From: a virus
Taxonomy: Duplodnaviria > Heunggongvirae > Uroviricota > Caudoviricetes
Virus record (IMG/VR): IMGVR_UViG_3300045988_003495
DNA: 64,000 bases
Reading direction: 5' to 3' (one strand)
In this document: positions 35,849 through 40,215 of the stretch, piece by piece
Position numbering within the stretch: the stretch's first letter is position 1
Layout of the letters: the number at the start of each line of letters is the position of its first letter
Made by a program: the position numbers and the translations under genes
The notes under the pieces: generated by a model
What the model was told of the DNA's origin: nothing
The model's input: only the letters and a program-made list of their open reading frames with translations
Databases searched by the model: none

Positions 35849-35924
35849 TCTCTGTTTAGCTCAGCTTGGTAGAGCGTTCCGTTTGGGGCGGTAAGGCCGG
35901 AGGTTCAATTCCTCCAACAGAGAC
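35849..35924 (+). tRNA. tRNA-Pro (anticodon TGG)
   Basis: Manual fold: acceptor tctctgt/acagaga, T-arm ggagg-ttcaatt-cctcc, anticodon loop tttgggg. Confidence 0.65.
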
Positions 35925-36008: not shown

Positions 36009-36103
36009 CCAGTTTTGACAGAAGACCAATTACAGCAAACTTAATCTTATTCATCTGAAGGTAAATCGGACAAAGAAGAGATTTGGTCTGGTCATTAAGA
36101 ATT

Positions 36104-36176
36104 GCGGGTATAGAGAAAGGGCGTCTCACATGTCTCATTAGCATGGTATCGGCAGGTTCGACTCCTGCACCCGCCT
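36104..36176 (+). tRNA. tRNA with CAT anticodon (Met or Ile2)
   Basis: T-arm gcagg-ttcgact-cctgc; anticodon loop ctcatta; acceptor pairing imperfect at the 5' end. Confidence 0.45.
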
Positions 36177-36256
36177 CCAAATTTACAGAAGACCGTATGC
36201 AGCAACAAACTACTTTTTGCGGATAAAAGAAAAAACACGGTCTGGCAATGTATTAA

Positions 36257-36342: not shown

Positions 36343-36427
36343 GTGTCGTTATCCCGTAGATGGTAGCGGTGGGGACTGTAAATCCCTTGTCATTGAGACT
36401 CGGTAGGTTCGACTCCTACACGGCACA
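36343..36427 (+). tRNA. tRNA-Tyr (anticodon GTA), long variable arm
   Basis: 85 nt; anticodon stem-loop gggga-ctgtaaa-tccct; T-arm gtagg-ttcgact-cctac. Confidence 0.65.
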
Positions 36428-36452
36428 CCAACACTTAGCGAGATACTTAGTT

Positions 36453-36854
36453 ATGAGAGATGAAGTATACAAATCACAACTTGGTATGAGTTTGGGAACT
36501 GCACAAAACAGACTAGTAAAAGATTTGCTATTCGATTTTATATGTAAGACAAATCAAAATAGATGTTTTCAGTGCGGAAAAGAAATGACTAGGGATGATT
36601 TCTCTATCGAGCATAAGACTCCGTGGAGACACAAAGATAATGCAAAAGAACTTTTCTTTTCACTAGATAACATTTCTTATAGCCACCTGCGTTGCAACAT
36701 GAAAGCAGCCAGACCAGCACAGATTTATGATAGAAAGCCTAAGCCAATTAAACACGGCACTGCACACAGCTACTCTAAAGGTTGCAGATGTGATGAGTGT
36801 AGGCTGGCTAAGAATGCTGAGGGTAGGAAGCACTATAACCCCAGAAAGGCGTAG
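36453..36854 (+). CDS. HNH homing endonuclease inside the tRNA cluster
   Basis: CFQCGKEM...FSIEHKTPW...SHLRCNMKAA...CRCDEC; ORF track start 36360 overlaps tRNA-Tyr, in-frame ATG at 36453 is the likelier start. Confidence 0.6.
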   Translation: MRDEVYKSQLGMSLGTAQNRLVKDLLFDFICKTNQNRCFQCGKEMTRDDFSIEHKTPWRHKDNAKELFFSLDNISYSHLRCNMKAARPAQIYDRKPKPIKHGTAHSYSKGCRCDECRLAKNAEGRKHYNPRKA

Positions 36855-36886
36855 GAAGAAGTATTTAAGAAATGGCACATAGTTTT

Positions 36887-36959
36887 GGGGTATTAGTTTA
36901 GACGGTGAAAATACGGGATTATCTCTCCTGAGCCGCGAGTTCGATTCTCACATACCTCG
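36887..36959 (+). tRNA. tRNA with atypical anticodon loop (ttatctc, apparent anticodon ATC; Asp-like?)
   Basis: Good acceptor (ggggtat/atacctc), D-arm and T-arm (gcgag-ttcgatt-ctcac), but A34 and T37 are unusual; Asp is otherwise absent from the cluster. Confidence 0.4.
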
Positions 36960-37110
36960 CCAATTTTGAGAGGGCTATTTAGCCCCTCCCTTAAAGAGTT
37001 CTTACGAGTATCCTTTAAAGGAGCAGAAGACCAAATACAGCAAGTTACTTAAAATTTCAAGCCAATTCAATTTTGAAAAATTTAAAACTTGGTCTGGCTC
37101 AACAAATTTA

Positions 37111-37551: not shown

Positions 37552-37623
37552 TGTGGGTTAGCATAAATGGTAATGCAAACGGCTGATAACCGTTAGAAGA
37601 GGGTTCGATACCCTCACCTACAA
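37552..37623 (+). tRNA. tRNA-Ile (anticodon GAT)
   Basis: D-arm gcat-aaatggta-atgc, anticodon stem-loop aacgg-ctgataa-ccgtt, T-arm gaggg-ttcgata-ccctc, CCA encoded. Confidence 0.7.
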
Positions 37624-37641
37624 CCAATTTCAATAAAGTTG

Positions 37642-37670
37642 TTGACATTGATACGTGACTACTTTATAGT
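37642..37670 (+). promoter_or_regulatory. sigma70-like internal promoter in the tRNA cluster
   Basis: TTGACA, 17-nt spacer, TATAGT. Confidence 0.5.
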
Positions 37671-37874
37671 AACCTTAGTTTTCGTTGCGTAGCGTCTATT
37701 TTGCAAATTTAAAATAAATGCAAACGACAATGTTTTTCTGGCAGTAGCTTGATAGGCTAAACACCAGTGAGGTCTTCCAATCCCTCATCAAAGAATTTGG
37801 CGTACTAGCCCACGGTATGATTAATAAGGTGGGCATCTTTAAGGGCTTTCTAAGAGAGTCTTTAAAGATAATTA

Positions 37875-37953
37875 CGGGGCGTATCTCAGCTGTCTTCTAA
37901 ACAGCCGTTAACCGAGTAAGTGGAGTATGCGGGTTCGAGTCCTGCCGCCTCGA
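37875..37953 (+). tRNA. tRNA-like gene, internal arms atypical (possible anticodon TCT, Arg)
   Basis: Clear acceptor (cggggcg/cgcctcg) and T-arm (gcggg-ttcgagt-cctgc) with CCA; gctgt-cttctaa-acagc hairpin would give TCT but leaves no room for a normal D-arm. Confidence 0.35.
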
Positions 37954-40100: not shown

Positions 40101-40133
40101 ACTTCTAAGGGTTCTTACGAGAGTCCTTAAATG

Positions 40134-40206
40134 TGGCCTTATCATAAACGGTAATGACCTATGCTGTGAACATGGTCTATGCGGGTTCAAATCCCGTAGG
40201 TCACCC
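40134..40206 (+). tRNA. tRNA-His (anticodon GTG)
   Basis: Anticodon stem-loop ctatg-ctgtgaa-catgg; T-arm gcggg-ttcaaat-cccgt; discriminator C73; CCA encoded. Confidence 0.65.
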
Positions 40207-40215
40207 CAATTTATA

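Follow-up and report, generated by a model that had tools for sequence, protein, structure and literature searches.

SegB of phage T4, an endonuclease of the GIY-YIG type, has been shown experimentally to be a homing endonuclease of a phage tRNA gene cluster, and it recognizes a motif in the tRNA T-arm (PMC2330249). In Felix O1-like phages, the gene for tRNA-Asp exists in more than one form. Felix O1 and most Felixounaviruses (at least 165 records) carry a resident tRNA-Asp(GTC) with the canonical loop CTGTCAC (A37), which lies 6 nt after tRNA-Tyr (as it also does in phage bumzen) and is not accompanied by an HNH gene. A different tRNA-Asp(GTC), linked to an HNH homing-endonuclease gene, is found in Salmonella phages pSJ21, BPS17W1 and 35FD and in Escherichia phage SME50 (annotated tRNA-Asp-GTC). 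As for the function of such tRNAs, five strong determinants (G73, G34, U35, C36 and C38) set their aspartate identity, and in bacteria those in the anticodon are the strongest (PMC9976931). A wobble A is known from bacterial tRNA-Arg(ACG), in which it becomes inosine through TadA, an enzyme highly specific for the loop of tRNA-Arg2 (CUACGAA) that is blocked in Escherichia coli by changes at positions 32, 37 and/or 38, and from an engineered M. jannaschii tRNA with the anticodon AUC, which in E. coli decoded GAU, with GAC, GAA and GAG below detection (PMC11066159). Finally, it has been proposed that changes in the anticodon loop allow phage tRNAs to escape host tRNases such as colicin E5, whose targets are the tRNAs for Tyr, His, Asn and Asp; these changes lie outside the anticodon and recur in phage groups (PMC10264068).

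The window analyzed here, the whole stretch of 64,000 nucleotides, comes from a Felix O1-like myovirus (Ounavirinae), and in its tRNA region it was about 94 to 95% identical to more than 250 records of Felixounavirus and Suspvirus. ARAGORN detected 25 tRNA genes between positions 35850 and 41216. With tRNA-Asp included, they cover 19 amino acids, without a tRNA-Trp, so that Asp is not, as the original prediction had it, the only amino acid otherwise missing from the cluster. The features that matter for the locus are the following, all of them on the plus strand.

36343..36430 (+), tRNA-Tyr(GTA), called by ARAGORN and identical in 7/7 relatives
36453..36854 (+), HNH homing-endonuclease open reading frame of 133 aa, phrog_23251, from its translation and a PHROG match
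36839..36842 (+), CCCC run with a private +1 C insertion, a gap in 13/13 aligned relatives
36887..36962 (+), tRNA-Asp gene (HNH-linked allele) with encoded CCA, from ARAGORN, Rfam, orthologues and covariation
36907..36907 (+), private change in the D-loop, from T or C to G; relatives also vary here
36919..36925 (+), anticodon loop TTATCTC in the Rfam alignment, with the anticodon ATC at 36921-36923
36950..36950 (+), private G64A, which turns the T-stem pair C50-G64 into a C.A mismatch, from orthologue comparison and cmscan

In a scan for promoters and terminators, sites were no commoner than expected by chance, and the stretch from tRNA-Tyr to tRNA-Asp had none, so we can only infer that the tRNA cluster is co-transcribed. 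The cluster also contains a tRNA-like element at 37875-37953 (+), which Rfam RF00005 matched with 31.2 bits and ARAGORN did not call. The acceptor stem and the T-arm can be recognized in it, as can an anticodon arm whose loop is CUUCUAA (UCU, Arg-like); only 4 nt take the place of the D-arm, and the variable region holds an insert of roughly 20 nt. Phages SME50 and radambza share this element, in whose anticodon stem they show a double compensatory change, and in other relatives the slot is taken by a normal tRNA-Arg(tct). Just upstream, at 37569-37873 (+), subthreshold matches to the Rfam families tmRNA_permuted (32.4 bits, gathering score 47) and tmRNA (15.4 bits) overlap tRNA-Ile and the sequence downstream from it, and they are probably tRNA-like noise.

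ARAGORN called the gene of interest as tRNA-Asp(atc) at 36887-36962 (+), with the encoded CCA inside the call, and Rfam RF00005 matched positions 36887-36959, the very ones at which a tRNA with the loop ttatctc had originally been predicted, with 47.1 bits (gathering score 29). The Rfam alignment gives an anticodon stem CGGGA/UCCUG and a loop UUAUCUC, in which U33, A34 (36921), U35, C36, U37 (36924) and C38 can be assigned, so the ATC anticodon and the pyrimidine at position 37 of the original prediction are both real. Nearly all tRNAs have an anticodon loop of seven nucleotides in which position 33 is U and position 37 a purine, without this being strictly defining; the window tRNA has the seven nucleotides and the U33, with U instead of a purine at 37. 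GTC was looked for under alternative registers and folds of the window tRNA and was not found. ARAGORN and Rfam agree on a single register, which rules out a GTC anticodon obtained through another fold, and GTC, the finding that would have spoken against the prediction, is seen in the orthologues only. Rfam families other than tRNA had no match at the locus. The minimum free energy fold was not a cloverleaf for the window allele, for any of the orthologues or for the Felix O1-type allele. Since evidently functional relatives also miss the cloverleaf, this kind of folding is uninformative here, and covariation and fixed-structure energies were used in its place.

The gene directly upstream of tRNA-Asp matched the PHROG profile phrog_23251 ("HNH endonuclease") with 226.7 bits over profile positions 1 to 131 of 142. 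Pfam gave no match to the window protein, and the Seunavirus homologue gave HNH at a subthreshold level only. In relatives, the open reading frame has 142 aa and ends at a TAG equivalent to window positions 36880-36882. The extra C (CCC to CCCC) shifts the frame of the window gene to a terminus ...NPRKA*, by which the conserved basic tail ERRRKKYLRNGT is lost; the last 12 of the 142 residues are gone, among them the invariant R133, Y137, R139 and G141, while 13/13 aligned relatives remain in frame. Across the genomes that have it, this tRNA-Asp allele lies 4 to 7 nt downstream of the HNH gene, between tRNA-Tyr and tRNA-Lys, and in the window it starts 4 nt past the point where the HNH gene of relatives ends (36882). 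The window thus shares with pSJ21, BPS17W1, 35FD and SME50 the order Tyr-HNH-Asp-Lys, T37, C38, G73, G10.U25, a 4-nt variable loop and an encoded CCA, and it differs from them in A34, A64, one D-loop change and the frameshift in the adjoining gene.

Together, the HNH gene and its tRNA-Asp form a cassette of roughly 530 bp found in a minority of Felix O1-like phages (23 Ounavirinae records carry the HNH gene with the window-type allele). Genomes that are otherwise collinear differ in whether they have the HNH gene, and tRNA-Tyr can be taken as the upstream boundary of the cassette because homology with endonuclease-free relatives stops at its 3' CCA. Salmonella phage BPSELC-1 and Escherichia phage HK3 have neither the HNH gene nor a tRNA-Asp and show a clean junction from tRNA-Tyr to the flank (…CACCAATTTTGAG…), as if the sequence between the two CCAs had been deleted. 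At least two genomes therefore have no tRNA-Asp, the verified ones being these two only; the junction query used for counting was confounded by BLAST pieces joined across the tRNA. The resident Felix O1 tRNA-Asp(GTC) occupies the same slot after tRNA-Tyr and shares the downstream flank from the CCA on, but it is only 56 to 57% identical to the HNH-linked allele, whose closer kin is the tRNA-Asp of Seunavirus NINP13076 (Vequintavirinae), with 78 to 79% identity. In NINP13076, this tRNA-Asp directly follows the gene of a homologous HNH protein (47% aa identity, E=3e-41). The association is also seen further afield. A tRNA gene lies within about 130 nt of a phrog_23251-type HNH gene in 10/14 IMG/VR loci, three of which have a tRNA-Asp(GTC) within 11 nt downstream, and in contig L033 a tRNA-Asp(GTC) comes directly after the HNH gene, as in NINP13076. 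Members of the family are located by tRNA genes in unrelated phages, and the hosts of the tblastn matches range from Pseudomonas to Vibrio and Bacillus. The phrog_23251 HNH gene appears to bring its own tRNA-Asp allele along, and the pattern of the cassette is that of a tRNA-cluster homing endonuclease, homing by the HNH enzyme being suggested by analogy with SegB. The two systems have in common a free-standing endonuclease among phage tRNA genes, its presence or absence between relatives and the co-inheritance of neighboring tRNAs, although SegB is a GIY-YIG enzyme and the putative homing enzyme of the window is an HNH enzyme with a frameshifted gene.

To separate old from new among the oddities of the loop, we compared the window with 20 orthologues, of which 18 come from GenBank genomes and one each from another IMG/VR contig and a metagenome contig; they represent seven alleles. 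The window tRNA-Asp is 96% identical over 76 nt to the HNH-linked tRNA-Asp(GTC) of relatives and belongs to the same allele by its slot, its spacing and an identity of at least 90% to the other alleles. The anticodon loop of the orthologues was (T/C)TGTCTC in 20/20, that is, with G34 and T37 throughout, and G64 was likewise present in 20/20, while A34 and A64 occur in the window alone. The Seunavirus homologue has the canonical loop CTGTCAC. Judged from this alignment, T37 is a fixed lineage trait of the Ounavirinae allele, older than A34, and its presence in all 20 orthologues makes it compatible with function; it is kept while the surrounding cassette diverges to 77% identity. By the same comparison, A34 is a G-to-A substitution confined to a single genome. 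A 40-mer centered on A34 had no match in the phage collection, and scans with N at position 34 matched G34 copies only in IMG/VR, a single G34 copy in metagenomes and nothing at all in GTDB genomes. The original prediction had listed both features of the loop as unusual, and both exist, but they are not equivalent, one being fixed in 20/20 and the other private, so the alignment to tRNA-Asp of related phages that it proposed as a check separates them. Pyrimidine 37 is rare yet not unique within the phage of the window. The tRNA-Met(CAT) gene at 36103-36179 (+), with the loop CTCATTA, has a pyrimidine at this position as well, and a tRNA-Met with pyrimidine 37 has likewise been reported from the related phage Sf14 (PMC12482277).

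Across eight distinct alleles, standard pairs made up 98.2% of the pair cells of the cloverleaf, and five pairs showed double-sided compensatory changes. None of 500 shuffles reached the observed pairing values, and in slid controls pairing collapsed to 29 to 69%. This covariation shows that the cloverleaf is real and that the HNH-linked tRNA-Asp allele is under structural selection in relatives. Against this background, the window copy has three private substitutions with respect to its orthologues (G34A, G64A and one D-loop change). At pair 50-64, six alleles have C-G and the Seunavirus copy has A-U; the pair is broken in the window only, where cmscan flags it as nonstandard. With the cloverleaf held fixed, the predicted energy is -12.0 kcal/mol for the window compared to -17.4 kcal/mol, a predicted cost of 5.4 kcal/mol, the whole of which would be regained by restoring G64 alone. 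The Rfam score falls from 55.4 bits for the G34/G64 allele to 47.1 bits. The change at 36907 is probably neutral, to judge from the variability of the site. On the other hand, the window tRNA keeps the determinants G73 (before the CCA), U35, C36 and C38, as well as G10.U25 and the encoded CCA, and pair 2-71 is G.U in every allele of the lineage, so that its deviation from G2-C71, a minor determinant, is not specific to the window. What has been lost compared to the orthologues is one identity element (G34, with A at 36921 against G in 20/20) and one stem pair (50-64), in a gene that still scores 47 bits.

There are three private changes in the 76 nt of tRNA-Asp (3.9%), compared to five in the other tRNAs (1,800 nt) and 20 outside the tRNAs (4,096 nt). 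The excess in tRNA-Asp over a background of 0.3 to 0.5% has an uncorrected P of about 0.005. Relaxed constraint alone cannot raise the substitution rate beyond the neutral one, and to this extent the excess counts against a decaying copy. Its weight is reduced, however, by the number of tRNAs tested (25), by the equal count in tRNA-His and by the hypervariability of one of the Asp sites. Most tRNAs of the window have zero to three base differences from the seven relatives that cover the full region. The tRNA-His at 40133-40208 (+) also has three private substitutions compared to these seven, but its stem changes, C28T and A49G, create G.U wobbles only, whereas the Asp change breaks a pair.

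With regard to charging and decoding, the fact that G34 is a strong determinant for aspartyl-tRNA synthetase (AspRS) (PMC9976931) suggests that A34 should cut charging markedly, and A34 would also remove the guanine that is exchanged for queuosine. Conversion of A34 to inosine by TadA was rejected on the sequence of the loop. The wobble A is shared with bacterial tRNA-Arg(ACG), but the loop UUAUCUC of the window tRNA-Asp differs from that of the tRNA-Arg(ACG) of the window itself (CTACGAA) at positions 32, 35, 36, 37 and 38, within the range of changes that block the enzyme (PMC11066159). Since AUC reads only GAU in E. coli, a charged window tRNA would serve GAU only. The comparison with the engineered M. 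jannaschii tRNA extends to the wobble A and the reading of GAU, although that tRNA, unlike the one of the window, is charged by an orthogonal synthetase independent of G34 (PMC11066159). GAU makes up 62 to 63% of the Asp codons of the phage. However, the six other NNY-box tRNAs of the window keep G34 under a similar bias toward T-ending codons (55 to 65%), which indicates that there is no general drive to A34, and codon usage is a weak candidate as its driver.

Several explanations of the window copy have to be weighed against each other. The lesions might not exist in nature: A34, A64 and the extra C could be errors of sequencing or assembly, or mutations acquired in laboratory passage, of a phage whose natural genome has GTC and an intact HNH gene. 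All of them are indeed singletons, found in no other record; the three fall within about 110 bp, and the frameshift comes from one base added to a homopolymer run, a classic type of error. Nevertheless, the 26 structural genes located between 41.3 and 62.1 kb (6,802 codons) contain no frameshift and no stop when compared with ULIM9, and the private branch of the window is ordinary in size (28 substitutions in about 6 kb, compared to 22 to 116 in relatives) and balanced in its spectrum (20 transitions, 8 GC>AT and 12 AT>GC). These observations make general sloppiness or mutagenesis unlikely, and both error-prone assembly as a general explanation and a signature of hypermutation were rejected. 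As substitution errors, moreover, seldom survive in a consensus, we regard an artefactual origin of the three lesions as unlikely. A role outside translation, as a tRNA-derived regulatory RNA or decoy, had been offered as one option in the original prediction and seems hardly credible. The unusual loop, with a T37 conserved across the lineage, is all that speaks for it. G73, the encoded CCA and the whole cloverleaf have been kept, with compensatory changes, as would be expected of a translating tRNA; the window-specific changes are found in no relative, and the locus matched no other Rfam family.

It could also be supposed that the change is adaptive and that tRNA-Asp(AUC) works as a GAU specialist, either by escaping nucleases of the colicin E5 type, which recognize G34 or Q34 followed by U35, or by pairing with GAU in Watson-Crick fashion. 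The majority share of GAU among Asp codons, the ability of AUC to read GAU in E. coli (PMC11066159), the proposed evasion of host tRNases through anticodon-loop changes (PMC10264068) and a density of private changes nominally above background are all in keeping with it, and the lineage-wide T32/T37, in a loop that differs from that of the host, could be viewed in the same way as the nuclease-evading phage tRNAs. In the window, unlike in those, it is the anticodon itself that is altered, in one genome and together with a structural lesion. An allele of this kind would lack G34, a strong AspRS determinant, and it sits beside a frameshifted gene and carries the stem-breaking G64A in the same copy. 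The tRNAs for Tyr, His and Asn, the other targets of nucleases of this type, keep loops of the form CTGTNAA in the window, and those of Tyr and Asn equal the host loops tabulated for Sf14 (PMC12482277), so escape by Asp alone would leave translation unrescued. G34 is, in addition, retained in the other NNY-box tRNAs mentioned above. We find an adaptive origin rather improbable. Its most complete version, a working and selected tRNA-Asp(AUC) charged well enough by the host AspRS, with unmodified A34 and U37, reading GAU and invisible to both nucleases and queuosine modification, is very doubtful; if true, it would be a rare case of a naturally occurring A34 tRNA for a two-codon box.

The explanation that best accommodates these results, to which we give a probability of roughly 0.68, is that the window has a recently damaged, dispensable copy of a phage tRNA-Asp(GUC) gene, orthologous to those of its relatives. 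This gene would travel with the free-standing HNH gene in a cassette inserted between tRNA-Tyr and tRNA-Lys. In the window, the RNA is probably still produced as part of the transcript of the tRNA cluster and would function poorly or not at all, A34 having taken away a strong AspRS determinant together with the substrate base for queuosine, and the C50.A64 mismatch weakening the T-arm; whatever tRNA-Asp(AUC) might be charged would decode GAU alone. The phage would tolerate an impaired tRNA because the host tRNA-Asp reads both Asp codons, and the existence of relatives without any tRNA-Asp indicates that loss of its function should be tolerated. The cassette is apparently in the degeneration phase of the life cycle of a homing element. 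The private mutations are probably disabling, although a score far above the tRNA threshold and the retention of most determinants and of the CCA speak against an impaired copy, and the gene is no wreck. That the HNH gene is damaged need not mean that the tRNA is damaged too. The pseudogene suggested in the original prediction, understood as a pseudogene or impaired copy, is the best fit among its three options. Its divergent tRNA-Asp is correct as to descent, since all orthologues have GTC, and fits less well than an impaired copy. The C50.A64 mismatch, the linkage to an HNH homing endonuclease and the frameshift in the HNH gene had not been part of it.

The gene itself is a known one, annotated as tRNA-Asp in many relatives, and its setting, a phage tRNA cluster with a homing endonuclease in it, is of a known kind as well. 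The case illustrates how a point mutation in a single genome can give an exotic look to an ordinary phage tRNA gene, a question that comparison with orthologues settles quickly. Should the A34 tRNA turn out to be functional, it would provide a natural test of decoding by unmodified A34 and of the tolerance of AspRS for the loss of G34. As it stands, the finding matters little in itself and leaves two by-products of modest value: HNH genes of the phrog_23251 family adjoin tRNA genes in unrelated phages, the one here appearing to carry its own tRNA-Asp allele in parallel to T4 SegB, and the HNH-linked tRNA-Asp allele retains a pyrimidine at position 37 across many isolates under structural selection.
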